A DNA stretch of 64,000 nucleotides from NCBI GenBank assembly GCA_963721545.1, contig CAVRKB010000012.1, forward strand, positions 31,409 to 95,408, read 5' to 3'. Positions 34,250-60,889 of this stretch are shown in pieces (within the stretch, counting starts at the first letter, position 1; each line of letters begins with the position of its first letter). The stretch comes from an uncultured Chloroflexia bacterium. GTDB lineage: Bacteria > Chloroflexota > Limnocylindria > Limnocylindrales > CSP1-4. The position numbers and the translations under genes are program-made. A model generated the notes under the pieces. It was given only the letters and a program-made list of their open reading frames with translations. It had not been told where the DNA came from and did no database searches.

Positions 34250-36404
34250 CTACGGTCGCGCGCCGAGCGAGGCGATCGCAGCCCCCAGGGCGGGAGCCAG
34301 CGACCGTGAGAACGTGGCCGTCAGGTGGCTGTGGTCGCGGTAGACGATCCGGTCGTTGACCACGACCGGGCAGGCGCCATCGCCGACGCAGATCCGGGCG
34401 GTCAGGTCGATGAGGGAAGCGCCGCTGGCTTTTGAGGCGATCGACTCGATGGCCCCAAGCCGCTCCGCGAAGGCCGTCTTGCGCGGGATGGCGCATGCCT
34501 CGACGTCGTCCTGGTTCGACGACAGGCAGCCGGGCACGTCACGGGCTGCATTCGGCGTGTCGACGATGATCGCCGACGTTCCCGGGATCCGGGCGAGCAT
34601 GCGACCGATGGCCGCGCCCTTCGCGGCGACCGTGGCGTCGCCGTCGCGCATCTCGTGGATGGCCAGCCTGCTCGTCGAGACGAGGGTCAGGTTCGGCTTG
34701 ATGGCGTCGAGCCGGGCCAGGGTGGCCTCGTTGAACTCGGCGCACTCTCGGTACTCGCGCTTGAGCGCGAGATTGCGGACCGGCATGTCGATGAACGGGC
34801 AGGCGACCTTGACGAACGTCACGATTCGCCAGCCCTCGTGGGTGGCAAGCCGTTCCAGTGCCGGGAACCAGTGCGCCGCATGCAAATCGCCGACGAGCGC
34901 GACCGTGTACCTCGAATCCTTGTCGCCGTAGACGCATGGCGCTGGCTTCGTCACCGGCTCGAAGGCGAGGCAGCCGTCGTTGCGGAGGCGTTCCTCGTCG
35001 GCGCGCGCGCCCGCCAATGCGGGCTTGACGCGACCGGACAGAGCGCCCGTGTTGACGACGTCGGGCGGCAGCGGCACGGTCGTGGGCGTCGGACGCGGCG
35101 TCGGCGACCCCGTCGGCGTCGATGTCGGCTCGGGCCGTCGGATCGGTCGTCGGTGTCGGGACGGCCGTCTCATCGGGCCACGGTTCATCGACCACCTCGG
35201 TCGGGGACGGCGTGGCGTCGGGCGGTGCGATCGCCTCGACGGGCGTCATCCCGAGCGACGGGCCTGCCGCGACAACCATGACCGCGAGCATGGCAGCCAG
35301 TCCGAGCGAGACGGTCCGTCCGGGACGGACCGCCAGGCTTGGCAGGCCCGTGCGGAACGGGGTCTCGATGAGCGCCCAGCAGAGGATGGCGGCGACGATC
35401 GACGCTCCGACGAGCCCGATGCTCCCGATCTCGTCGACCGGGCCGCCGATGGCCATCGGCGCCAGGACGAGGATCGGCCAGTGCACGAGATAGAGCGAGT
35501 AGCTGATCCTGCCCAGGAATCGGACCGGCGGGATCGACAGCAGCCTGCCCGGACCCAGCGCCCGCGAGCCGCCGGCGACCAGGGCGACCGTGCCGAGGAC
35601 CGGGAGGAGTGCCGCGACGCCTGGGTATGCCAGGGTCGCGTCAAAGGCCACGGTCGCCACTCCGACCGCGAGCAGGCCGAGCCAGCCGGCGAGCCCGACG
35701 ATCCGACCGGGAACGCGCGCCAGGGCGCCGGCACCGACCGCGAGCAGGCCACCCAGGCCGAGCTCCCAGGCCCGCGTCGGGAGCGAGTAGAACGCCCAGT
35801 TGGAGGCGATGTCCGTGACGATCAGGTTGGCTGCGAGCGAGGCCGCCACGATGGCGACGAGCACGACGGCGACCCGGCGCCGGGCGTGACCGCCGCGGGC
35901 GACCAGCAGGATGAGGGCCGGCCACAGGAGGTAGAACTGCTCTTCGACCCCGAGGCTCCAGAAATGCAGGAACGGGGATGGGGCGGTCACGCTCGAGAAG
36001 TAGTCGCCCGCAGCCAGGGCGAAGCGGATGTTGCCGAACGAGAGGGCCGCGACGGCGCCGTCCAGGCCGACGGCCGCCCGATCGAGCGGAGCCACGAGAA
36101 GGAAGGAGGCGCCAAGCGTGGCGATGAGCACGACGAGGGCCGCCGGAAGCAGACGCCGGGCTCGGCGTGCGTAGAACGGCAGCAGGCCGATCCGCCCGGT
36201 TCGCTCGTGCTCGCGCAGGAGGAGCCCGGTGATGAGGAAGCCGCTGATGACGAAGAAGACGTCGACGCCGACGAAGCCGCCGGCCATCCCGGCCAGGCCG
36301 GCGTGAAACAGGACGACGACGAGGACGGCCAGCCCGCGCAGGCCCTCGATGTCGGGGCGAAATCCGTCGTGGGTGCTGGAAGAGGCGGGTGTGGGCACGA
36401 TCAC
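34250..36404 (-). CDS. acyltransferase-3 (OafA/YrhL-type) membrane O-acyltransferase with C-terminal SGNH domain (one apparent frameshift)
   Basis: N-terminal 10-TM acyltransferase_3 domain (GLRGLAVLVVVLFHAG...FFVISGFLITG). The C-terminal SGNH hydrolase-type domain is in a second frame from about 35150, reached through a Pro/Thr-rich linker. Confidence 0.7.
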
Positions 36405-36700
36405 GTCACTCGAGCTATCGGTCACCGGTGAGTTCTCCGCCGGCCGCAATGGAGACGCGGAGGCGAAGCGCTTGTCACAGGTGCATGACTCACGCACACA
36501 CCATCAGTCGAAGCTCGCCCCCGCGGTATGGACGGCGATGGCCGGGCTGGATGGACGTTTGCGCCGTGTCCGGGTCAGCGCATGTCGACCCGACAGGAGT
36601 GACTGGACATCGAACCCTGGTCCGCGTGGCGCCCGGCGCATCGCGGTTCCGAGCCTCGCGCTAGACTGCCGAACTGAGACGAACGAGGCTGGGAGAGCGC

Positions 36701-37587
36701 TTGGTGCAACAGGCCCACCCGCGGACGAGCGCGCGCCGGAAACGAGTCGCCATGCTCCTGGCGCTGTCGATCGGCGCTCTGGCCCTGGCCGCGCTGTCGC
36801 CCGCGCCGAGCTCCGGGGTCCCCGGGCGCGCATCGGCGTTGGAGCCGGCCGCGGTGGCGAGAGCACGCCTCGAGCCCAGGCACCACGGACACCGAGGCGG
36901 CGAGCCCGATCCCGTCGTCGAGTCCGCCATCGCCGGCACCGGACACACCCGCCATCAGATCCGACCTCGGTCGCGCGGATGTCCCCGTCCGTGATCCCGC
37001 GCCGAACGTGGCTGCTCGTCACGTCGGCGGACTTGAAGGCGGTGTTCCTGGGCGACTCCTATACGACCGGGTGGAACGGCGCCGGGATTGGCCGCCGAGG
37101 GTGGCCGGCGATCGTGGGTCGGACGCTCGGCTGGCGGACGGTCAATCTGGCGGTGGCAGGTACAGGCTTCATGAACCCTGGGTGGACGAACCAGACGATC
37201 GGCGCACGCGTCGCAGCGACGATTCGACAGAAGCCCGACATCGTGGTCGTCGCCGCGGGCCACAACGACTCACGATGGTCGGTCGCAACGACCGCCCGTG
37301 CGGCCGACGCCGCGCTCGACCGCCTCCGTCGCGCCCTCCCGGATGCCGTGTTCGTCGTCGTCGCGCCGATCTGGTCGAATGCCACGCCACCGGCGCGGTG
37401 CCTCGACCTTCGGGATCACCTGCGACGGACGGCGCGCTCGATGCACGCGATCTTCGTCGACCCTCTTGCGGGTCGATGGTTCGCCGGGATCCGCCAGCGA
37501 CTGATCGGTCCCGACGGCCTCCACCCGACGGATGCGGGCCACCGCTACATCGCCCAGCAGTTCCTCGAAGCGATGGCCGCGAACTAG
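36701..37587 (+). CDS. secreted SGNH/GDSL-family hydrolase (one apparent frameshift)
   Basis: Signal peptide RKRVAMLLALSIGALALAA in frame 1. Catalytic blocks FLGDSYTTG, GHND and DGLHPT in frame 2 after about 36960. Confidence 0.65.
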
Positions 37588-37638
37588 CCGGACCGGCCGC
37601 CTCACTTGGAGCCGGCCGGTCCGCGTCCTCGCCGCCGG

Positions 37639-38148
37639 TCAGCCCGGGACGAGCACGCTGTCGATGACGTGGATCACGCCGTTCGAAGCGTCGACATCCG
37701 CCAAGAGGATCTCGGCACCGTCGACATAGGCCGACCCGCCCTGGACGGACGGGGACAGGAAGTCCCGGTTGAGCGTCCGAATCTTCGTCGAGGTCACGAC
37801 GTCGCCGCTGTCGCGCTCGCCCGGCGCCACGTGGTGGAGCAGGACGGCCCGCAGCGTGGCCACGGGAATGCCATCGACGCCGTCGACGCCGAGCGCGGCG
37901 TATAGGTCCCCGAATGCCGCATCCGTCGGCGCGAAGACGGTGAACTGGCGGTGGCCGTCCAGCTCGTCGACGAGCCCCGCCCGAACGACGGCGGCGATCA
38001 GTTCGTCGAACTCACCGGTCGCGGCATTCACGGCGATGGCCGTGTCGACGATCGTCGCTCCGGGCTGGCGGGCGGCGGCCGGCGTTGCGACGACGGCCAG
38101 GGAGAGTGCAGCCGCGGCGACCGCGGCGCTGAGACGTAGACCTCGCAT
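37639..38148 (-). CDS. fasciclin (FAS1) domain secreted protein
   Basis: Signal peptide plus FAS1 motifs: TVFAPTDAAF, NGVIHVIDSVLVP. GGAGCACC RBS before ATG 38148. Confidence 0.8.
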   Translation of the reverse strand: MRGLRLSAAVAAAALSLAVVATPAAARQPGATIVDTAIAVNAATGEFDELIAAVVRAGLVDELDGHRQFTVFAPTDAAFGDLYAALGVDGVDGIPVATLRAVLLHHVAPGERDSGDVVTSTKIRTLNRDFLSPSVQGGSAYVDGAEILLADVDASNGVIHVIDSVLVPG

Positions 38149-38195
38149 GGTGGGTGCTCCTTCGTTCGATGGGTTGGGTTGGCTGGTGAGTCGGA

Positions 38196-38426
38196 CTAGG
38201 CGAGCGCGGGCTCCTCGCGCCGTGCGACCCAGCGAATCAGCGTCGGGACGAGGCCGATCGCGGAGATGCCGACGAGGATGTAGATGACGCTGGAGATCGG
38301 GTTCGTCTCGCCAAAGGTCTGACCGGTTAGGGCGGCGACCAGGTCGAACTTCGCCACGCCTACGAGCAGCCAGTTCAGGCCGCCGACGATGACGAGGAAC
38401 AGGAAGAGGGGATTGAGGTAGCGCAT
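38196..38426 (-). CDS. DUF378-family small membrane protein
   Basis: MRYLNPLFLFLVIVGGLNWLLVGVAKFDLVAAL is the DUF378 signature. GGAGGACACGG RBS. Confidence 0.7.
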   Translation of the reverse strand: MRYLNPLFLFLVIVGGLNWLLVGVAKFDLVAALTGQTFGETNPISSVIYILVGISAIGLVPTLIRWVARREEPALA

Positions 38427-38458
38427 GGCGTCCGTGTCCTCCAAGTGTGGCTTGCCGC

Positions 38459-38476
38459 CTCGTACAACTCTTGTAC
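38459..38476. promoter_or_regulatory. inverted repeat CTCGTACAAC-TC-TTGTACAAG in the DUF378/merR divergent promoter (candidate MerR-type operator)
   Basis: GTACAA/TTGTAC arms separated by 3 nt. Shares the CTCGTAC heptamer with a second inverted repeat at 39564-39581. Confidence 0.3.
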
Positions 38477-38548
38477 AAGGTCTGTGCAGACTTTGCCATG
38501 TTGTTGAGGGCTTGTCAAGTCTCCCTCGACCGCTACACTGCACGAACC

Positions 38549-39533
38549 ATGTACACGATCAAGGAGGCCGCGGCGCGAACCGGCCTGACCGTACCCGTCC
38601 TCCGCGCCTGGGAGCGGCGCTACGGCGTGGTCGCGCCAACGCGCACGGCCAGTGGCTATCGGGTCTACGACGAGGCCGCCCTCGAGCGGCTGCGGTCGAT
38701 GAGGCGATTGGTCGACAACGGCTGGTCACCCAGTGCCGCGGCCGCAGCGATCATCGCGGGCACGGATCCGCCTGGGGGCATCCCGGTCGAGTCGATGGCC
38801 GAAGGAACGGTGGGATCGGCTAGCCGAGCAGCTCGTCGATGCCGCCGCGGCCCTCGACAGCCCACGGATCGAGGCGGTCCTGGATGAGATGCTTGCGGGC
38901 GGGACCTACGAGCGGGTCATGGACGACCACGTGATCCCGGCGCTCCGTGCCCTCGGCGACGCCTGGGCGGCGGGCCGCGTGCCCGTCGCGGGCGAACATG
39001 TCGCGAGCAACGCGGTTCTTCGTCGGCTCGCGGCATCGTTCCAGGCATCCGGGCCTGGACGCGACCAGGGCCGACCGGTGCTCGTCGGCATGCCGCCCGG
39101 AGCGCATCACGAGCTGGGCGGGCTCATCTTCGCGACGGCATTGCGTCGGGCTGGGCATTCTGTGGTCTACCTCGGCGCGGATCTTCCGCTGAACGACTGG
39201 ATCGGGGCCGTCGAACGGACCGATGCGCGCGCCGTCGTGATCGGCGCCGTCATGCCTGCCGACGCAACCGCGGCTCTGTCCGTCGCCGCAGGGCTGCGCG
39301 CGGCCCGACCTGAGGTCCTCATCGCGTTCGGCGGCGCCGCCGCCCCCGAACCGGACGGCGCCTCGGCGTCGTCCGACAGGACGATCCGCTTACCCGCGGA
39401 GGTCGTCAAGGGCGTCGAAACGCTGAGCGCCGCCCTGACGAGGAGCGTATCGGCGCCCCCAGGCGCTCCGCGAGCCGCAGGTTCTCCGCGTGGTCCATCG
39501 GCACGTCGACGAGCGACGGGCCTTCGGCCCTGA
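38549..39533 (+). CDS. MerR-family regulator with C-terminal cobalamin (B12)-binding domain (CarH/LitR-like), one apparent frameshift; 3' end uncertain
   Basis: N-terminal MerR HTH: YTIKEAAARTGLTVPVLRAWERRYGV. The C-terminal half, in the +1 frame from about 38820, has a B12-binding Rossmann domain (VLVGMPPGAHHELGGLIFATALRRAGHSVVYLGADLPLNDWIGAV). TACACT 9 nt upstream of the ATG. Confidence 0.65.
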
Positions 39534-39696
39534 GTACTTCACGGCTCCTCGACATGGCCGGGACTCGTACGGTGGTACGAGAGTTTCGGCGCGGGTGCTT
39601 GTCGAAACCCGTTGCCGTGCGTACGATGAGCGGGTACCGGGCGCTCACCGCCCACCCGACTGACCGCGAACAGCCCTCCCGGAGGACGAAAGCCCG

Positions 39697-40107
39697 ATGA
39701 TCGATCAGCAGCCGACGACGATCGACCCGCAGCCGCCGCAGACGACGGTGGTGTCGCTCACGGACGCCGCGGTCAGCAAGCTCCAGGAGCTGACCAAGGA
39801 AGAGACCAATCCGGCGATCGGGCTGCGCGTCTACGTCTATTCCGGCGGCTGCTCCGGCTTCCGCTACGGGATGATGCTCGAAGACGCCCCGACGCCCGAG
39901 GACCAGGTCCTCGACGCCAGCGGGATCAAGGTCTACGTCGACGGCCAGAGCATCAGCCTGCTCCAGGGCTCGCAGATCGACTATGTCGACACGCTGATGG
40001 GCGCCGGCTTCACGGTCAACAACCCGAATGCCGTCGCGGCGTGTGGCTGCGGCTCGAGCTTCCGGACCGCCGAGGACGAGGGCGCGCCCAAGGGCTGCTC
40101 CCACTGA
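39697..40107 (+). CDS. erpA: iron-sulfur cluster insertion protein (HesB/IscA/ErpA A-type carrier)
   Basis: VYVYSGGCSGFRYGM...VNNPNAVAACGCGSSF with the three conserved Cys. Confidence 0.85.
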   Translation: MIDQQPTTIDPQPPQTTVVSLTDAAVSKLQELTKEETNPAIGLRVYVYSGGCSGFRYGMMLEDAPTPEDQVLDASGIKVYVDGQSISLLQGSQIDYVDTLMGAGFTVNNPNAVAACGCGSSFRTAEDEGAPKGCSH

Positions 40108-40144
40108 CCCACGGCGGGCCTGACAGGGCCCGAACGACACCATC

Positions 40145-40170
40145 GAAGCCGCCGGGCGACTGGCGGCTTC
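40145..40170 (+). terminator. possible intrinsic terminator hairpin downstream of erpA
   Basis: GAAGCCGCC-gggcgact-GGCGGCTTC perfect 9-bp stem followed by ctgatt (weak U tract). Confidence 0.25.
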
Positions 40171-40340
40171 CTGATTCCACGCTCCGTGCACCCGACCTTT
40201 GGAGCGTCCGACCCGGTACCGCGGGGTCATGCGCGACCCTGCACGGCCTGAGCGACGCTCCGCGCAACCGAAACGGGGCTAGACTCGGAGCCGGTGGCCG
40301 GCCGGGCCGGACGTCAGATCGGACCGCGAAGGGTAGTTCG

Positions 40341-41198
40341 ATGGAGATCCCGCTCTTCCCGCTCCACACCGTCCTCTGCCCGGGCATCGTCCTGCCCCTC
40401 CACGTCTTCGAGGACCGCTACCGCGCGCTGACCCGCCACTGCCTCGACACGGGGACGCCGTTCGGGGTCGTCCTCATCCGCGAGGGGCGCGAGGTCGGTG
40501 CGGGCGAGCGTCCTGGCGCTGGCCGGCGTCGGCGCACTGGTCGAGATCCGCGAGGCGGGGCGCTACCCCGACGGCCGCTATGACCTGCTCGCCGCGGCCA
40601 CCGGGCGTTTCTCGATCGAGGCGGTCGACCCCGGGCGCGAGCCGTACCTCGTGGCCGACGTGACGCCGCTCGAGGACGAGGTCGGCGACGAGGCGCGCGC
40701 CGAGCGGCTGGCCGCGTCCGCGATCCGCCGGTTCATCCGCTATCTCGATCTCATGCGGGCGCGTGACGGCGAGACGAACGAGGTGCTCGACATCCGGGTC
40801 GAGGTCGACAGCACGGCGCTGCCGACACCGACGTGGACGAGATCGTGATCGATGACGACGACCGGCCGGCCATCGATCCGGCGGCGGCCCGCGCGGCCGA
40901 CGACCTCATGGCCGAGGGCGCCGAGGACGATGACGAGCTCGAGGACGACGACGATGCGCCGCCGTCGCGTCGCCGCGACCTGGTCATCCCCGATGACCCG
41001 ACGGTCCTGTCCCACCTGCTGTCGGGGATCGTCCAGATCGAGCTTCCCCGCCGCCAGGCGCTGCTCGAGGCGGCGACGACGACCGAGCGGCTCGAGGCCC
41101 TCATCCGGCTGCTCGACCGCGAGCTGCTGCTGCTCGCCCGGCGCCTCCGGCTGTTCGCCCCCGACCCGCGGCTGATGCGCGGGCCGCGCCGCAGCTAG
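40341..41198 (+). CDS. LON N-terminal substrate-binding domain protein (two apparent frameshifts)
   Basis: MEIPLFPLHTVLCPGIVLPLHVFEDRYRAL; a middle segment RYPDGRYDLLAAATGRFSI; and the C-terminal coiled coil LLEAATTTERLEALIRLLDRELLLL. Each lies in a different frame. Confidence 0.6.
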
Positions 41199-41214
41199 GC
41201 GACGCGAGGGCGGG

Positions 41215-41816
41215 CTACTCGCTGAAGCGCTCTTCCTTCCACGGGTCGGCGTCGTTGTTGTAGCCGTAGCGCTCCCAGAACCCGAGCTGGTCGTGGTCGA
41301 GGAACTCGAGCCCGCGGATCCACTTGCTGCTCTTCCAGAAGTAGCGCTTCGGGATGAGCAGGCGGAGCGGGTAGCCGTGCTCGAGCTCGAGCGGCTGGCC
41401 GTCGAACGTGTCGGCCAGCAGGACGTCCTCGTCGTCGAGGATCGACAGCGGGACGTTGGCGGTATAGCCCTGCTCGGCGTGCGACACCACGTGGGTGGCG
41501 GTCGGACGGACGCCGGCCATCTCGAGGATCGTCTGGATCGGGACGCCCTCCCAGGTCGTGTCGAGCTTCGTCCAGCGGGTGACGCAGTGGATGTCCGTGT
41601 GGACCGTCTTGCGCGGCAGGGCCTTGAACTGGTCCCAGGTCAGCGTGAACGGGGCGTCGACCTCGCCCCACACCCGGAAATCCCACGTCGCCAGGTCGGT
41701 GTGCGGCACCGATCCGTAGTGGAGGACCGGGAACTTGTCGGTCTTGTACTGCCCGGCGGGATGCGCTCGGCGACGGCGGGGTCCTGCTCCTTCGAGCCGA
41801 AGAGACGTTCGAACAT
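41215..41816 (-). CDS. sulfite-oxidase-family molybdopterin-dependent oxidoreductase (one apparent frameshift)
   Basis: VHTDIHCVTRWTKLDTTWEGVP and GYPLRLLIPKRYFWKSSKWIRGLEF Moco-binding motifs. The N-terminal 25 aa MFERLFG...ERIPPG are in another frame; a single C is missing near 41750. Confidence 0.65.
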
Positions 41817-41979
41817 GGCGGGCGGAGTCCTCGATGCTTGGCTACCGCCCGCATGGTCGCACAAGACCGTGACGGCCCCGTGACCGGCGGGTCCCACGCT
41901 CGCGTGCGGTACCCTTCGCCCGTGCCCATCCCCGAGACACCCGAGCCGACCGACCGCCGCGCCGCCTCGCCTGATCATC

Positions 41980-42718
41980 GTGATGCCCGCCTACAACGCG
42001 GCGCGCACGCTGGAGCGGACGTACGCCGACATCCCGCACGAGCTCGTCCACCGGATCATCCTGGTCGACGACGTGTCGCGCGACGAGACCGTCGACATCG
42101 CCCGGCAGCTCGGGCTCGACGTCATCATCCACAGCCAGAACCGCGGCTACGGCGGCAACCAGAAGACGTGCTACGACGCTGCGCTGGCCGCCGGCGCCGA
42201 CATCGTGGTCATGCTCCACCCGGACTACCAGTACGACGCGACGTCGCATCCCGGCCCTGATCGCCCCGATCGCCGACGGCTCGCGCGACCTGATGCTCGG
42301 CAGCCGCTTCCTGGGCGACCCGCTGGCGGGCGGCATGCCGCGCTGGAAGTACGTCAGCAACCGGTTCCTGACCGGCGTCGAGAACCTGGCCTTCGGGCTG
42401 CGCCTGTCCGAGTACCACACCGGCCTGCGCGCCTACAGCCGTCGATTGCTCGAGACGGTGCCCGTATCAGCTCAACAGCGACGACTTCGTGTTCGACCAG
42501 GAGCTGATCGCGCAGGTCGTGGCCGCCGGGATGGCCGGCCGGATCGGCGAGATCGGGGTGCCGACCCGCTACTTCGAGGAGGCCTCGTCGGTCGGGTTCC
42601 GGCGCAGCGTCGTGTACGGCCTGTCCACGCTGCGGGTCGTGGCGCGCTACCTGCTCCACCGGCTGCGCGTCCGGCGCTCGCCGAAGCTCCTCGCCCGCCG
42701 CCGTCGCTCCGACTGACC
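41980..42718 (+). CDS. family-2 glycosyltransferase (Dpm1/GtrB-like polyprenyl-phosphate sugar transferase), two apparent frameshifts
   Basis: [48 protein letters not shown] in frame a; GSRFLG...[20 protein letters not shown] continues through frames b and c. Confidence 0.7.
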
Positions 42719-42723
42719 GCCCG

Positions 42724-43789
42724 ATGCGGATCAGCAATGGCGCCATCCTCCGCGCCACGATCGGGATCGCGATCAGCGTCGTCGCGGTCGTCATCCTCGT
42801 CAGCTCGGTCGACATCGAGGCGGCGCTCCAGGTCCTCGCCACGGCGTCGCTCGCCTGGATCGCGGTCATGTTCGTGACGACCACCGTCGACATCGGCGCC
42901 CGGGGCGCCCGCTGGCGAGCCCTCCTCGCGCCGATTGCGCCGCTGCCCTACCGGCGGGTCCTCGGCTACACGTACATCGGCTACCTCGCCAACAACGTGC
43001 TGCCGGCCCGCCTCGGCGAGCTGTACCGCAGCCATGCCCTCGGGGAGGGGGAGGGGATCAGCCGCACGACGGTCCTCGGCACGGTCGTCGTCGAGCGCGT
43101 GGTCGACACCGTGATGGTCGTCACGATCGCCGCGCTGGCGGTGCTGGTGCTGAGCGTCCGCGGCGTGATGACCAGCGCGGTCCTGCTCGGGCTGGCGTTC
43201 GTCGCGCTGCTCGTCGTCGTGCTCGGACTGGGGATCGCCGCCCATCGCCTGCCCGGCGCCGATCGCGTCGCGGCGATCATCGCCCGCCGGCCGCGCGCTC
43301 CTCGAGCTGGCACGCCGGCTGCGCGACGGGCTGGCCGTGGCCGGGAAGCCGCGCGTGATCGGCGCCGCCCTCGTCTGCAGCGCCGTGGCGTGGGCCGCGT
43401 CGACCGGCACGTTCCTGGCGGCCGGCCAGGCGGTCGGCGTCGAGCTCAGCCTCGCGCAGGCGGCGCTGCTCACGAGCGGCGTGGCGCTGGTGTCGATCGT
43501 GCCGTCCGGCCCGGGCTACGTCGGCACGTTCGAGCTGACGGTCGTGGCGATCGCCGACGGCCTGGGGATCCCGCGCGATTCGGCGTTCGCGCTCGGCCTG
43601 CTCGTCCACCTGATGATCCTGCTGACGACGTCGGTCGGTGGCGTGACGGCGATGCTGCTGCTCCGGCGGCGGCGGGCGGCGGCCGCGCTGGCCGAGGCGG
43701 CGGCCGCGGACGGTGCCGCGACCGAGATCGGGCCAGCGCCGACACGGGCGGAGCCGCGAGACGTGGCGGAGGGCGAACCCGCGCCATGA
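42724..43789 (+). CDS. flippase-like / lysyl-PG-synthase-TM-region family membrane protein (UPF0104), one apparent frameshift
   Basis: Polytopic membrane protein immediately downstream of GT2. LANNVLPARLGELYRSHAL motif. The C-terminal four helices are in the +1 frame after about 43290. Confidence 0.55.
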
Positions 43790-45777
43790 CCGCGGCGTTC
43801 CCGCACGTCTTCGAGCCGCTCCGGCTGCGACACCGGACGCTGCGCAGCCGGATCACGTTCGGGGCCCACACCGCGAACATGGCCGAGGACGGGCTGCCCG
43901 GCGAGCGACACATCGGCTACTACCGCGAGCGGGCGCTCGGCGGCGCCGGGATGATCGTCGTCGAGCCGATCCCGATCCATCGCACGGCGGTCCTCACCCG
44001 CGGCAACTTCCGCCACTCGGACGATGCCGTCATCCCGGCCTTCCGGCGGGTGACCGACGCCTGCCGCGAGGCCAGCCCGGACGTCGTGCTCATCCACCAG
44101 CTGTACGACGTCGGCCAGCACGGCGACGCCGACAACTCGTTCGCGCCCAACTGGTCGCCGTCGGGGCTGCCGTCGTACCACGACGCCGACGGCAGCCACG
44201 CGATGACCGAGCCGGAGATCGAGGAGCTGATCGCCGGCTTCGTCGCGGCGGCCGGCCGGGCGCAGGCCAGCGGCTTCGACGGGATCGAGCTGTTCGCCGC
44301 CTACCACGCGGTCGTCGACCAGTTCTGGGCGCCTTGGTCGAACCGCCGGACGGACGCCTGGGGCGGCACGTTCGAGTGCCGGATGCGCTTCTCGGCCGAG
44401 ATCCTCGGGCGGATCCGCGAGCGCTGCGGCGACGACTTCATCGTCGGGCTCGCGGTCAGCGTCGACCCGGGTGCCGAGGCGACGCTGTCGATCGACGAGC
44501 TGGCCGAGGTCGTGGCCTGGCACGACGAGCGGCGGCTGATGGACTACGTCACCTGCGGAACCGGCTCGTACTTCGACTTCTACCAGATCATGCCGACGTC
44601 GCTGTACGACGCACGCCTCGGCGAGCCGCACGCGGCAGCGCTCAAGCGGGTCGTTCGGCACGCGCTCGTCCAGGCCGAGAGCCACATCCGGACCCCGGCC
44701 GCGGCCGAGGCCGTGCTGGCCGCCGGTCATGCCGACATGGTCAGCATCGTCAGGGGCCAGATCGCCGATCCGCACCTGGTGGCGAAAGCCCGCGACGGCC
44801 GCGCCGACGACGTCCGGCCGTGCATCTCGTGCAACCAGCTGTGCTGGGGCCGACGCTCACGCGACCTGTGGATCTCGTGCCTCGTCAATCCGTCGGCCGG
44901 TCGTGAGTTCGCTTGGGACGGCGACCGCTTCGAGCCGAGCCGGCGGCCACGCAACGTGCTCGTGGTCGGTGGCGGGCCGGCGGGCCTCGAGACGGCGCGC
45001 GTGGCGGCCGAGCGCGGCCACCGGGTGACCCTGGCCGAGCGGGGCGACGAGCTCGGCGGCCAGTTCCGGCTGGCCGGCCGGCAGCCGAGCCGCGGCCAGA
45101 TCCTCGACCTGCTCGCCTGGTACGAGCGACAGCTGGCGGCGCTCGGCGTGGACATCCGCCTGGGGCATGAGGTCGGCGCGGACGAGGTGGCGGCCGCGGG
45201 TGCGGACGAGGTCGTCGTGGCGACCGGGTCGCGGCCGCCGGGCACGGGCTTCCAGCGCGCGCTGCCGACCGTCGACCGTCTCCCCGGGGTGGACGGCGCG
45301 GACGTGCTGTCGATCCAGGACGTGCTGGCCGGCACGGCCGTCGCGGGCCGGCGGGTCATCGTCCTCGACGACGTCGACGACTGGCGGGGGATCGGGACCG
45401 CGCTGTATCTCGCGGAGCGCGGCCACGAGGTCACGCTCGTCAGCGCGGCCGCGGTCGTCGCCCAGGGCCTGTTCCACAGCGCCGCCGACGTGCCGCTCCG
45501 CCGCCGCTTCGCGGGGGCCGGCGGGACGATGCTCCCGTCGTCATCAGTCCTCGGCTGGCGCGACGGCGTGGCGCTCGTCCGCTCGACGCTGACCGGCGAG
45601 CTGACCAAGCTCGCTGCGGACGCGCTGGTCGTCGCCGAGACGCCCGTCGTCGTCGACGCGCTGGCCGGCGAGCTGACCCGGCGGGGCGTCGCGTTCCACC
45701 AGGTCGGCGATTGTGTCGCGCCGCGGCGAGCCAGCATGGCGTTCTACGAGGCGCGCGAGCTCGCCCGCCGTCTCTGA
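43789..45777 (+). CDS. fused OYE-like FMN oxidoreductase / [4Fe-4S] / FAD-NAD(P)-binding enzyme (trimethylamine dehydrogenase / N-methylproline demethylase StcD / 2,4-dienoyl-CoA reductase architecture)
   Basis: Intact 662-aa ORF. OYE TIM-barrel N-terminus (RSRITFGAHTANM...GFDGIELFAAYH), 4Fe-4S motif CISCNQLCW...C, then NVLVVGGGPAGLETA dinucleotide fold. Confidence 0.85.
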   Translation, partial: TAAFPHVFEPLRLRHRTLRSRITFGAHTANMAEDGLPGERHIGYYRERALGGAGMIVVEPIPIHRTAVLTRGNFRHSDDAVIPAFRRVTDACREASPDVVLIHQLYDVGQHGDADNSFAPNWSPSGLPSYHDADGSHAMTEPEIEELIAGFVAAAGRAQASGFDGIELFAAYHAVVDQFWAPWSNRRTDAWGGTFECRMRFSAEILGRIRERCGDDFIVGLAVSVDPGAEATLSIDELAEVVAWHDERRLMDYVTCGTGSYFDFYQIMPTSLYDARLGEPHAAALKRVVRHALVQAESHIRTPAAAEAVLAAGHADMVSIVRGQIADPHLVAKARDGRADDVRPCISCNQLCWGRRSRDLWISCLVNPSAGREFAWDGDRFEPSRRPRNVLVVGGGPAGLETARVAAERGHRVTLAERGDELGGQFRLAGRQPSRGQILDLLAWYERQLAALGVDIRLGHEVGADEVAAAGADEVVVATGSRPPGTGFQRALPTVDRLPGVDGADVLSIQDVLAGTAVAGRRVIVLDDVDDWRGIGTALYLAERGHEVTLVSAAAVVAQGLFHSAADVPLRRRFAGAGGTMLPSSSVLGWRDGVALVRSTLTGELTKLAADALVVAETPVVVDALAGELTRRGVAFHQVGDCVAPRRASMAFYEARELARRL

Positions 45778-45837
45778 GTCCCGCTCCGCCGTACCATTGC
45801 GGTCGGCGGATCACGCGCTCGAGCCCGAGGTGATCAG

Positions 45838-47385
45838 ATGGCTGTCCCTGACGTTGAACGCCCGACGCTGCGGCGCGGTCGGGCAGCGCGCCAGACCGAG
45901 CGGCTGGCTCGCCACATGGACACCGTCCCATACCTGACCCGCCGCCTCGCCCCGGTCGAGGTCGTCTCCACCGAGGGCCTCGAGCAGATCGAGGCCAACG
46001 CCGACACGCTCCTCGAAGAAGTCGGCATCGAGATCGTCAACTTTCCCGAGGCGACCGAGATCTTCCGCGGTGCCGGGGCGGATGTCACCGACCAGCGCGT
46101 CCGCTTCCCCCGCGGCATGTGCCGCGCACTCGTTCAGGCGACGGCGCCACGGCTGTTCGCGCAGCGCGCCCGGAACGAGGCTCGCAGCGTCCAGATCGGC
46201 GACCCGTACATGGTCCTCGTCCCGACCTACGGCTCGCCGTTCATCCACAACCTCGACGAGGGACGGCGCTACGCGACGATCGAGGACTTCCGCAACTTCG
46301 TGAAGCTGACCTACACGAGCCGGACGCTCCACCACGGCGGCGGGACGCTGTGCGAGCCGGTCGACCTGCCGGTCAACAAGCGCCACTTCGAGATGGTCTA
46401 CAGCCACATCCGCTACTCGGACCGCGCGTTCATGGGCTCCGTGACGCACCCCAGCCGGGCCCAGGATTCGGTCGACATGGCGCGCATCGTGTTCGGTGGC
46501 GAGACCATGGAGACCGAGCACGTGATCATGGGTCTGGCCAACGCCAACTCGCCGATGTCGTGGGACTTCAACATGCTGGGCTCGGCCAAGGTCTACGCCG
46601 AGAACAACCAGATCATGCTCATCACGCCGTTCATCCTCGGCGGCGCGATGGCCCCGGTCACCGTCGCGGCGCAGGCGACACAGACCCTCGCGGAAGCGCT
46701 CGCCGGGATGGCGTTCTGCCAGATCGTCCGGCCGGGGGCGCCCGTCATCTTCGGCTCGTTCGCGTCATCGATGTCGATGCAGTCGGGCGCGCCGACGTTC
46801 GGCACTCCGGAGCCGCAACTGGTGCTGTTCGTGCTCGCCGCGCTGTCGCGCCGGCTGGGCGTCCCATTCCGGAGCGGCGGCAACTTCACCGCCTCCAAGC
46901 TGCCCGACTACCAGGCCGCCTATGAGAGCGCGATCAGCTACATGGCGACGATGCAGGCGGGCGTCAACTTCAACCTCCACACGGCGGGCTGGCTGGAGGG
47001 CGGCCTCGCCGTCGGGTACGAGAAGTTCATCCTCGACGAAGACCAGGCGTCGATGACCGAGGCCTACATCAAGGGCGTCGACGTCACCGACAACGGCTAC
47101 GCGCTCGACGCCATGCTTGGCGGCGGGCCCGGCCAGCACTTCCTGGGCTCGCCCCACACGCTGGCGAACTTCGAGACGGCGTTCTGGCGGTCCGAGCTGT
47201 CGAACAACGACTCCTTCGAGCAGTGGGAGATCGACGGTGGCCTCGACGCCGCGCAGCGCGCGAACCTGCGCTGGAAGAAGCGCCTGACCGAATACGAGCG
47301 GCCGGCGCTCGACGACGCGATCCACGACGAACTCGTCGAGTGGATGGACCGGCGCAAGGCGAGCTTCCCCGACTCGGACGTCTAG
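45838..47385 (+). CDS. MttB-superfamily (trimethylamine methyltransferase family, non-pyrrolysine) quaternary-amine methyltransferase homologue
   Basis: Intact 515-aa ORF with MttB-family TIM-barrel blocks (PFIHNLDEGRRYATIEDF, GGAMAPVTVAAQATQT, SMQSGAPTFGTPE, GWLEGGLAVGYEKFILDED). No in-frame TAG. Confidence 0.85.
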   Translation: MAVPDVERPTLRRGRAARQTERLARHMDTVPYLTRRLAPVEVVSTEGLEQIEANADTLLEEVGIEIVNFPEATEIFRGAGADVTDQRVRFPRGMCRALVQATAPRLFAQRARNEARSVQIGDPYMVLVPTYGSPFIHNLDEGRRYATIEDFRNFVKLTYTSRTLHHGGGTLCEPVDLPVNKRHFEMVYSHIRYSDRAFMGSVTHPSRAQDSVDMARIVFGGETMETEHVIMGLANANSPMSWDFNMLGSAKVYAENNQIMLITPFILGGAMAPVTVAAQATQTLAEALAGMAFCQIVRPGAPVIFGSFASSMSMQSGAPTFGTPEPQLVLFVLAALSRRLGVPFRSGGNFTASKLPDYQAAYESAISYMATMQAGVNFNLHTAGWLEGGLAVGYEKFILDEDQASMTEAYIKGVDVTDNGYALDAMLGGGPGQHFLGSPHTLANFETAFWRSELSNNDSFEQWEIDGGLDAAQRANLRWKKRLTEYERPALDDAIHDELVEWMDRRKASFPDSDV

Positions 47386-59362: not shown

Positions 59363-59470
59363 CTCGGCCTGCGTCCGGTCCGGTCTCCGGCCGGGGTACC
59401 GGCTAGCATTGGGCGGGTCGTCGATCGGTGGCGCCGCGCCCGGTCGTGGGATCAGCTGCGGGAGACCTGC

Positions 59471-60889
59471 GTGACGGATATGGACACGGCCGCGGGCGAG
59501 GGGCTGCGCCGACGGCGAGGCGGCGGCCGTGAGGGTCATGCCCGCAATGCCCTGCCGCAGCAGCCGCCGTGGGCCCAGCCGCGCCTGCGCTACCCCCCGA
59601 CCGAGCTGCTGTCGGCCGACGAGCTCGAGTCGATCCATACCGGCTCGCTCCGCGTCCTGTCCGAGATCGGGATGGACTTCCTCGACGCGGACGCCCGCGA
59701 GGTCCTGCGCGCCGCCGGGGCGACCGTCGAGCCCGATTCGCAGCGGGTCCGGTTCGACCCCGGGATGGTCACCGAGCTGATCAAGACGGCGCCGGCGCAG
59801 TTCACGCTCCACGCCCGCAACCCCGCGCGTGACGTCCAGCTGGGTGGCGACTGGGTCGCCTTCGGGACCGTCGGCAGCCCGCCCAACGTCGCCGACCTGG
59901 ACCGCGGCCGGCGGATCGGGAACCGGGCCGACTACCAGAACCTGCTGCGCCTCGCCCAGTCGCTCAACGCCGTCCATTTCCTGTCGGGCTATCCCGTGGA
60001 GCCGGTCGACCTCCATCACGGGGTTCGGCACCTGTGGGCGAGCTACGACGCCCTGACGCTGATGGACAAGGCGGTCCACTGCTACAGCCTCGGCCGTCAG
60101 CGCAACATCGACGTCCTCGAGATGGTCCGCATCGCCCGCGGCGTCGACCAGGCGACGATCGACCGGGAGCCGTCGGTCTTCACCGTCGTCAACTCGAGCT
60201 CACCGTTGCGCCTCGACGCCCCGATGCTCCAGGGGATCATGGAGTTCGCGGCCCACAACCAGGTGGTGTGCATCACGCCGTTCACCCTGGCCGGGGCGAT
60301 GGCCCCGGTCACCCTCGCCGGTGCCCTCGCCGAGCAGAATGCCGAGGCGCTGGCCGGGATGGTGCTGACCCAGGCGGTCAATCCGGGTGCCCCGGTCATC
60401 TACGGAGGCTTCACCTCGAACGTCGACATGCAGTCGGGGGCGCCGGCGTTCGGGACTCCCGAGTACATGCGGACGGCGATGATCGGTGGCCAGCTGGCGC
60501 GCCGCTACGGCGTCCCGTACCGGTCCTCGAACGTGTGCGCCGCCAACGCCCTCGACGCGCAGGCCGCCTACGAATCGGTCTTCTCGCTGTGGGGCGCGAT
60601 CCAGGGCGGGGTCAACCTGCTGATGCACGGCGCCGGCTGGATGGAGGGCGGGCTGCACGCCAGCTACGAGAAGATGATCCTCGACGCGGAGCTCCTCGGG
60701 ATGGTCGCCGCGTTTCTCGAGCCGGTCGTGGTGGACGACGAGACGCTGGCCTTCTCGGCGATGCAGGAGGTCGGTCCCGGCGGCCACTTCTTCGGCGCCG
60801 AGCACACCCAGTCGCGCTACCGGACCGCGTTCCACAAGCCGATGCTGAGCGACTGGCGCAACTACGAGACGTGGGAGGAGGCCGGATAG
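59471..60889 (+). CDS. MttB-superfamily methyltransferase homologue, second copy (C-terminal 49 aa continue in the +1 frame to 61038 after an apparent indel creating TAG at 60887)
   Basis: 472-aa frame with MttB-family blocks (GAMAPVTLAGALAEQNAEALAG, DMQSGAPAFGTPE, GWMEGGLHASYEKMILDAE). The downstream +1 frame encodes ANRIWKELLAAYEPPPMDPAIAEELDAFV, homologous to the C-terminal tail of the first MttB copy. Confidence 0.8.
   Translation: MTDMDTAAGEGLRRRRGGGREGHARNALPQQPPWAQPRLRYPPTELLSADELESIHTGSLRVLSEIGMDFLDADAREVLRAAGATVEPDSQRVRFDPGMVTELIKTAPAQFTLHARNPARDVQLGGDWVAFGTVGSPPNVADLDRGRRIGNRADYQNLLRLAQSLNAVHFLSGYPVEPVDLHHGVRHLWASYDALTLMDKAVHCYSLGRQRNIDVLEMVRIARGVDQATIDREPSVFTVVNSSSPLRLDAPMLQGIMEFAAHNQVVCITPFTLAGAMAPVTLAGALAEQNAEALAGMVLTQAVNPGAPVIYGGFTSNVDMQSGAPAFGTPEYMRTAMIGGQLARRYGVPYRSSNVCAANALDAQAAYESVFSLWGAIQGGVNLLMHGAGWMEGGLHASYEKMILDAELLGMVAAFLEPVVVDDETLAFSAMQEVGPGGHFFGAEHTQSRYRTAFHKPMLSDWRNYETWEEAG

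Follow-up and report, generated by a model that had tools for sequence, protein, structure and literature searches.

CarH is a well-understood photoreceptor that is widely used as an optogenetic part. Among related regulators, the MerR head is shared by CarA and the LitR classes, and B12-type domains are found in CarA and AerR; the class II/III LitR proteins have no B12-binding motif, and AerR and PpaA have no DNA-binding domain. Here, we describe a carH/litR-type gene (38549..39533, + strand; hereafter carH), together with its upstream region and its neighbors, in a 64,000-nucleotide stretch of DNA (the window; contig CAVRKB010000012.1 of assembly GCA_963721545.1) from an uncultured Chloroflexia bacterium of the Limnocylindrales. 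Unlike CarA, the class II/III LitR proteins, and AerR/PpaA, the encoded regulator has all three parts of a CarH protein, a MerR-type DNA-binding head, a four-helix bundle, and a B12-binding Rossmann domain, as well as an intact Wx9EH motif. We consider it probable that carH, the repeats upstream of it, and the divergently oriented genes for a DUF378 protein and a fasciclin protein would form a self-contained CarH/LitR light-response cassette.

The CarH proteins of Myxococcus xanthus, of other myxobacteria, and of Bacillus megaterium are adenosylcobalamin (AdoCbl)-dependent repressors with operators of three to five tandem TnnACA repeats (PMC9304148). The repeat unit is an 11-bp nnnnTnnACAn, which is present in three copies for Thermus thermophilus CarH (TtCarH), in four for Bacillus, and in up to five for myxobacteria; one of the repeats usually contains the −35 element, and some operators govern two divergent promoters, with one repeat holding the −35 sequence TTGACA (PMC9304148). 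An intact Wx9EH motif plus the B12 motif is the criterion that divides photoreceptor CarH from CarA, and CarA of Myxococcus, which is without the Trp of Wx9EH, is B12-independent (PMC9304148).

The locus described here shares with TtCarH (LitR; PDB 5C8D, 5C8E, 5C8F, and 3WHP) the same three-part architecture, the RxWERRY, Wx9EH, and lower-axial His signatures, an array of three 11-bp tandem repeats overlapping promoter elements, and a regulator gene that is divergent from its adjoining targets, with autoregulation being probable. As in the myxobacterial and Bacillus systems, TTGACA is one of the repeats. In contrast to TtCarH, there are two repeat sets and two back-to-back promoters with one common palindromic −35 element, and carotenoid genes such as crtB are replaced as predicted targets by DUF378 and fasciclin. 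Likewise, whereas the regulons of the myxobacterial and Bacillus proteins are carotenoid clusters, no carotenoid gene is linked to carH in the window or in any related locus examined.

Domains and signature residues of the regulator

The carH gene starts at ATG 38549, stops at 39531-39533, and encodes a protein of 327 amino acids after removal of one base. All relatives begin at MYTIKEAA, in agreement with ATG 38549 as the start. The first ~87 codons specify a MerR-type helix-turn-helix (MYTIKEAAARTGL...RAWERRY...), while the later part lies in the +1 frame. Pfam identifies MerR_1 (MerR helix-turn-helix; residues 2-65, E = 3.5e-17), the B12-binding_2 four-helix bundle (residues 92-162, E = 1.9e-11), and the B12-binding Rossmann domain (residues 178-265, E = 1.6e-12). 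The closest solved structures are those of TtCarH, in particular 3WHP and 5C8D, which align along residues 1-268 with an E value of ~5e-33, and the top match in NCBIfam is the CarH model NF052513 (163 bits, E = 7e-48, the best of the library). An earlier note, made from the letters of this stretch, had described a CarH/LitR-like MerR and B12 regulator with a lower-axial His; the Pfam domains, H187 (see below), and the full-length TtCarH alignment after frameshift repair, which the note had proposed as a check, all support that description.

The recognition-helix signature RxWERRY is present as RAWERRY at residues 19-25 and is invariant in 22 relatives. The Wx9EH motif is present as WAAGRVPVAGEH at residues 139-150; specifically, in a HMMER alignment to TtCarH, LGDAWAAGRVPVAGEHVASN falls on W131/E141/H142, matching W139, E149, and H150 of the window protein. 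The earlier note had reported Wx9EH as absent and had raised light-independent B12 sensing on that ground; the Trp that it had considered ("W-DRLAEQLVD") belongs to the segment read out of frame at the frameshift, and with the motif intact that ground is gone. Furthermore, the segment PPGAHHELG is aligned with PPGERHEIG of TtCarH, which equates H187 with H177, the lower-axial His. Residues W139, E149, H150, and H187 are invariant across the 22 aligned relatives, down to 55% identity. The hallmark of CarA, in which EH is kept and the Trp and its flanking residues are gone, is not seen, the Trp being present. In the classic Rossmann B12 motif, D/ExHx2G/P-x41-SxT/V-x22-27-GG, the His is the lower axial ligand, and the spacing of this motif is matched exactly (A185-x-H187-xx-G190-x41-G232-x-V234-x26-G261G262). 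The Arg beside the axial His (R176 of TtCarH, a salt-bridge residue) is a His in the window allele and an Arg in most relatives. Together, these features identify the protein, as far as sequence can tell, as a CarH/LitR-type B12 photoreceptor repressor with all three parts and an intact Wx9EH.

The shift of frame occurs at 38808..38816 (+), in the variable linker that connects the DNA-binding part to the B12 domains, and is caused by one extra base, which is T38811 relative to L081, one of the related contigs, or A38815 relative to two others, L082 and L105; deletion of T38811 and deletion of A38815 alike restore the 327-residue open reading frame (ORF). Intact 327-residue proteins are found at 98% (P0001) and 90% (P0002) identity, and L105, a contig of 462 kb that matches the gene order and is 96% identical, has an intact carH. 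In addition, four other genes of the window are split relative to their intact orthologues in L083, namely LON-N (three frames), Oxidored_molyb (two frames), the glycosyltransferase gene GT2 (three frames), and LPG_synthase (two frames), and window-specific single-base indels relative to L105 (at 38815, 40505, 41751, and 42461) coincide with frame breaks. Because intact relatives exist and at least four neighboring genes are frameshifted, we read the carH frameshift as a likely indel error in the assembly consensus. The earlier note had placed a frameshift at about 38820 and had worried about a truncated protein; the frameshift is real in the sequence, as one extra base at ~38811-38815, but the truncation is likely an assembly error. 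The low consensus accuracy of the window makes any 'pseudogene' seen there doubtful.

Alternatively, carH could be a true pseudogene in this strain, with the DNA-binding head parted from the B12 domain, in which case expression of DUF378 and fasciclin would be constitutive. The extra base is present in the sequence as given, two other close-relative assemblies (L103 and L104), in which carH is broken elsewhere, are likewise without an intact carH call, and a consensus sequence alone leaves room for a real frameshift in the strain, which is a point against a functional regulator. However, the frameshifted neighbors are of unrelated function, the window-specific indels are single bases strewn across coding DNA, intact alleles exist at 90-98% identity, one of them in the same gene order on the 462-kb contig, and the carH ORF has no decay beyond the single base, all of which makes a pseudogene quite improbable.

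Frame breaks were also recorded in the window at 40505, ~40813, ~41751, ~42250, ~42461, and ~43297, as well as in the region 34253-36497, and the gene for an AT3-SGNH acyltransferase is probably frameshifted too.

Operator-type repeats and predicted back-to-back promoters

The intergenic region between carH and DUF378 is 122 bp in length and contains CTCGTACAACTCTTGTACAAG at 38459-38479, which runs on as GTCTGTGCAGAC. Within it, three tandem 11-bp direct repeats (set A, 38461..38488) have the cores cGTACA (38461-66), TGTACA (38472-77), and TGTGCA (38483-88), which read TGCACA, TGTACA, and TGTACG on the DUF378 sense strand and are of the TnnACA type. The earlier note had proposed an operator at this promoter in the form of an inverted repeat ending at 38476; the site exists, but it is composed of three tandem direct repeats, and 38476 is slightly short of the correct end at 38479. 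The pattern TGTNNA-N5-TGTNNA-N5-TGTNNA (≤1 mismatch) has a single match in the 64-kb window, compared with 0.03 expected from dinucleotide shuffles, and a repeat scan with ≤2 mismatches gave no other CarH operator in the window outside 38461-38529. Only as a set of direct repeats does the site exceed chance expectation. In half of the related loci taken from species-representative genomes (39 of 78), a triple repeat (≤1 mismatch) lies no more than 180 nt ahead of carH, at −89 and/or −47 from the ATG and almost always in the same orientation, while the background is one match in 591 kb of flanking DNA. This architecture assigns the first site to the published CarH operator type, a direct-repeat array that the regulator would be expected to bind.

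A second candidate operator (set B, 38502..38518) is composed of two cores 11 bp apart, TGTTGA (38502-07) and TGTCAA (38513-18), and many relatives have three repeats at this place, −47 from the ATG. The second repeat of set B is the common palindromic −35 element CTTGTCAAG. Specifically, the promoter scan identified a carH promoter at 38512..38539 (+) with −35 TTGTCA (38512-17), a 16-nt spacer, and −10 TACACT (38534-39); this is the sole promoter-like site from the scan, and its position is conserved in relatives. The predicted transcription start is ~3 nt before the ATG, which would make the carH mRNA near-leaderless. On the opposite strand, a putative DUF378-fasciclin promoter (38490..38518, −) has −35 TTGACA (38518-38513), a 17-nt spacer, and −10 CAAAGT (38495-38490).

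An anchored alignment of 57 upstream regions gives a common order of elements, namely set A, a TAnnGT-type −10 on the DUF378 strand, set B, and the carH −10. In this alignment, the DUF378 −10 reads TAAAGT, TAGAGT, or TACAGT in most relatives, and the distance from the near-invariant palindrome CTTGTCAAG to the carH ATG is fixed at 37 nt. Set A spans about −5 to +25 of the predicted DUF378-fasciclin promoter and set B lies over the shared −35, a geometry that would fit a repressor closing both promoters. The close relatives L081, L103, and L105 are longer by one or two bases in the interval from set B to the DUF378 −10 (at 38500 / 38498 of the window), and the DUF378 −35/−10 spacing is hence 17 nt in the window versus 18 nt, which may be real variation or a consensus error.

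We propose that, in the dark, the regulator would carry AdoCbl and oligomerize, and its MerR-type heads would bind the tandem 11-bp repeats in the 122-bp region. Bound at set A, it would cover the DUF378-fasciclin promoter from the −10 across the start into the early transcribed sequence, and bound at set B, it would cover the palindromic −35 that is common to this promoter and the back-to-back carH promoter, whereby both transcription units would be repressed. Light would break the Co-C bond beneath the Wx9EH cap, the oligomer would dissociate, and DUF378, fasciclin, and carH would be expressed.

Several points weigh against this proposal. In the protein, the classic D/E and Ser of the Rossmann motif are replaced clade-wide, in the 22-relative alignment, by A185 and G232 (AxH for ExH and GxV for SxV relative to TtCarH); the regulator would likely bind cobalamin even with this altered triad. 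The residue after the Trp is not His (W139-A140 here, W131-H132 in TtCarH), which precludes the bis-His photoproduct of TtCarH. The NF052513 score of 163 bits is well under the 400-bit equivalog cutoff of that model, which marks close equivalogs of its seed proteins, and the score would place the protein as a distant member of the family, not as an outsider. In the DNA, the first repeat of set A has C for T (CGTACA), and the DUF378 −10 box (CAAAGT) is weak and was not called by the promoter scan in the window.

The divergent genes and their conservation

The DUF378 gene (38196..38426, −) encodes a 76-residue protein with two predicted membrane helices (Pfam PF04070, E = 5e-18). The fasciclin (FAS1) gene (37639..38149, −), the second gene of the divergent unit, follows 46 nt past DUF378 and encodes a 169-residue protein with an N-terminal signal peptide (Pfam PF02469, E = 2.5e-27). 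Next to it is a GDSL/SGNH gene (36349..37587, +). The neighbors given in the earlier note, DUF378, fasciclin, SGNH hydrolases, and erpA, are confirmed in both coordinates and families.

To score neighbors in 80 loci, we used profile hidden Markov model (HMM) searches and database gene calls; naive ORF calling was too noisy and was dropped. In 44 of the 73 loci with enough upstream sequence, DUF378 and/or fasciclin is directly divergent from carH (tblastn plus HMMs built from the hits). In the 4-kb flanks, the two genes are found almost nowhere else, the exception being a weak same-strand fasciclin match in L061. Most of the loci with this pairing belong to Limnocylindria-type Chloroflexota, and the pairing, again with two repeat sets in this arrangement, recurs in Actinomycetota, Solirubrobacterales, and Gemmatimonadales (e.g. 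L066 and L072). The earlier note had remarked that a set of genes without carotenoid genes would be an unusual regulon for a CarH-type protein; this holds for DUF378 and fasciclin, but erpA, which the note had included, does not belong to the set (see below). Full-text literature searches found no link of CarH/LitR to fasciclin or DUF378, and none of the papers that they returned for DUF378 together with light concerns a light regulon.

In ten relative loci, the string of genes divergent from carH includes a heliorhodopsin gene (Pfam E ~1e-90) beside DUF378 or fasciclin; it lies upstream of carH on the − strand in L018 (2802-3635), L037 (2740-3576), L042, L019, L020, L029, L031, L033, L036, and L038. 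Heliorhodopsin is a retinal photoreceptor, and its presence in the string therefore fits a light regulon. Furthermore, at least 17 divergent strings, often after heliorhodopsin, contain a fusion of an SRPBCC lipid-binding domain with a NAD-binding SDR domain (470-500 residues). Neither heliorhodopsin nor the SRPBCC-SDR fusion was found in the window. Taken together, the relative loci point to B12-photoreceptor control of heliorhodopsin in soil Chloroflexota.

A study of heliorhodopsin neighborhoods lists a 'MerR family transcriptional regulator' and an SDR protein among frequent neighbors; it does not identify the MerR neighbor as a B12 photoreceptor and has no mention of DUF378 or fasciclin (PMC11109279). 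By comparison, the relatives described here place heliorhodopsin and an SDR-type gene divergent from carH, whereas the window is without heliorhodopsin. A further study of heliorhodopsin context has no mention of these neighbors.

The cargo was also considered as a set of chromophore-handling proteins. In the PDB, the fasciclin protein matches TGFBIp, periostin, and Rhodobacter Fdp far ahead of algal AstaP. A role as a specific AstaP-like carotenoid binder was set aside as a remote possibility, the AstaP structures matching only at E values of 4e-8 to 7e-6. The Synechocystis AstaP homologue, the bacterial one that was tested, binds no carotenoids (PMC10147662). We give little credence to the idea that the FAS1 and SRPBCC proteins might handle carotenoid or retinal in an AstaP-like manner; as a working guess, the cargo may bring about a light-dependent change of the cell surface.

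MttB-family (trimethylamine methyltransferase-like) enzymes work with corrinoid proteins, and the window contains two genes for such enzymes (45778-47382 and 59363-60886, +; Pfam E = 3e-207 and 1e-184). Because of these genes, corrinoid use, with cobalamin made or imported, is probable in the organism. The regulator could also be a CarA-like or other light-independent corrinoid-responsive repressor that senses B12 availability instead of light. The presence of corrinoid-dependent MttB-family enzymes in the genome and the replacement of the Asp/Glu and Ser of the His-Asp-Ser triad are in its favor, as is the fact that no carotenoid or photolyase gene was detected among 20 window ORFs by Pfam or tblastn, in a scan that is not exhaustive given the many frameshift-fragmented ORFs; the same scan also gave no heliorhodopsin gene. 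However, Wx9EH, which divides CarH from B12-independent CarA (PMC9304148), is intact and invariant, and heliorhodopsin is among the co-located genes in relatives. With Wx9EH present, light-independent sensing loses its main support, and we judge it very improbable compared with the light-responsive repressor proposed above.

The palindrome before erpA and the site of the cassette

Downstream of carH, the Fe-S carrier gene erpA (39697..40107, +) encodes a product that passes the NCBI ErpA equivalog cutoff, and the interval between the two genes contains CTCGTAC-GGTG-GTACGAG (39564-39581). The earlier note had presented this palindrome and the site upstream of carH as a related pair of operators sharing CTCGTAC. 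It is indeed a perfect 7+4+7 palindrome; the reading as a related operator did not survive scrutiny. Perfect inverted repeats of this class (stem ≥7, loop 3-6) number 61 in the window versus 65.6 ± 6.9 in shuffles, CTCGTAC itself is present in 12 copies across the window, and the GTAC cores of the palindrome are 8 bp apart, not 11, with the repeat scan empty at this place even at two mismatches.

The palindrome is retained in L081, L082, and L105. Nothing can be read from this retention, since the three contigs are near-identical (96-100%) throughout 39250-40800; carH itself is only 87-90% identical. Conservation of 39440-39700 as a sign of constraint on the palindrome was accordingly rejected in favor of mosaic recent ancestry (39250-40800 being 96-100% identical to L082). 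More distant comparisons are informative. In L083, whose CarH is 82% identical, the cassette is inverted and erpA follows fasciclin; homology to the window starts inside the palindrome, at ~39572, such that conservation extends over the right arm and the next 50 nt but does not include the left arm. The left arm is likewise absent in L087, L089, L090, and L092, all of which have the erpA promoter block described below, and L092 has the window's own carH-to-erpA order.

That block (39574-39628, core 39600-39628) reads GGTACGAGAGTTTCGGCGCG..GCTTGTCGAAACCCGTTGCCGTGCGTACGAT and contains a promoter-like TTGTCG and TACGAT separated by a 17-nt spacer. The 29-mer TTGTCGAAACCCGTTGCCGTGCGTACGAT was matched in 16 contigs by a metagenome scan, and it is upstream of erpA in all 14 that reach the gene. 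The encoded ErpA proteins are 82-93% identical, the leaders have diverged, the upstream gene varies (thiolase, fasciclin, or carH), and the left arm of the palindrome is in none. The 29-nt core, including the spacer, is identical in all 16 contigs and has no Rfam match; the invariance of the spacer suggests that a regulator binds there or that another constraint acts. Riboswitches or other structured RNAs were considered, for the leader of erpA as well as for the carH region, and rejected, an Rfam scan of 36000-42000 giving only two sub-threshold matches elsewhere. One such match, to the NiCo riboswitch at 41344-41428 (+; 24 bits against a gathering threshold of 37, E = 0.059), lies antisense in the Oxidored_molyb coding region and is probably due to chance.

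Were the palindrome a second site of the regulator, erpA would come under B12 or light control. Its perfect symmetry, the CTCGTAC shared with the first site, and its presence in three close relatives speak for this. However, that class of palindrome is at chance frequency, the 8-bp core spacing does not match the operator repeats, the retention comes with a near-identical stretch, the left arm is missing where the promoter block is kept, that block is invariant whatever gene lies upstream, and not one of the 80 species-level loci has erpA after carH. We regard a second operator as extremely unlikely; the comparisons place erpA outside the putative CarH regulon, with a strongly conserved promoter block of its own.

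It is unlikely, though less so, that the palindrome forms a 3′ hairpin specific to this lineage on the carH transcript, acting as a weak terminator or stabilizer, or is a by-product of a junction made by insertion or inversion of the cassette. The palindrome lies 31 nt past the carH stop codon, with a predicted hairpin energy of −9.4 kcal/mol; the L083 homology begins within it, and the cassette differs in orientation between thiolase and erpA among genomes and is absent from others. On the other hand, the tail AGTTTCGG lacks a T-tract, no terminator was called there by the scan, and chance alone suffices to explain the palindrome. Overall, the palindrome is best read as a lineage-specific accident at a variable junction and at most a weak carH 3′ hairpin. 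A minus-strand ORF at 39406-39555 was considered as the remnant of a different gene at a rearrangement junction and rejected, because tblastn found it in near-identical contigs alone, where it is antisense to the carH tail.

The flanks of the window cassette and of L083 are collinear, with TetR-paa-3HCDH-thiolase on one side and erpA-LON-Oxidored_molyb-GT2-LPG_synthase on the other. The carH-(DUF378)-fasciclin cassette (37590-39600) is found in one orientation or the other between thiolase and erpA, depending on the genome, and in some contigs thiolase directly abuts erpA and the cassette is absent (sites compared: L083 7378-8945, L087, L089, L090, L088, L094, and L097-L100). No repeats or mobility genes were seen at the cassette ends. 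The presence of the cassette in either orientation, or its absence, at the same site implies that regulator, operator, and cargo behave as a unit that moves together.

Farther downstream, an ORF at 42508-45774 (+) encodes three domains in one product, namely an LPG_synthase_TM membrane domain, Oxidored_FMN of the Old-Yellow-Enzyme type, and pyridine-nucleotide-disulphide reductase, and L105 likewise has a single 1017-residue call (from 6021 onward). This combination is unusual and could be a frameshift artefact.

One more CarH homologue adds little by itself. As judged from the sequence alone, nothing is new in the type of protein or operator, a canonical CarH/LitR regulator with a canonical tandem-repeat operator, and what is new, to a modest degree, is the conserved non-carotenoid cargo of this CarH clade. 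Our analysis clears two doubts about the locus, the 'missing' photoreceptor motif and, as a likely assembly error, the 'broken' gene, while a plausible-looking second operator turned out to be chance. On a broader reading, the loci would represent a portable, cross-phylum, light-induced carH cassette whose cargo is envelope- or chromophore-related and not concerned with pigment synthesis, a proposition on which we are evenly divided. Through the conserved regulon, three protein families whose roles in bacteria are obscure or debated become open to a direct expression test in dark and light. If the portable cassette is real, it would provide the first regulatory context for DUF378 and bacterial FAS1 proteins, and a B12 photoreceptor would gate heliorhodopsin expression in many soil Chloroflexota.

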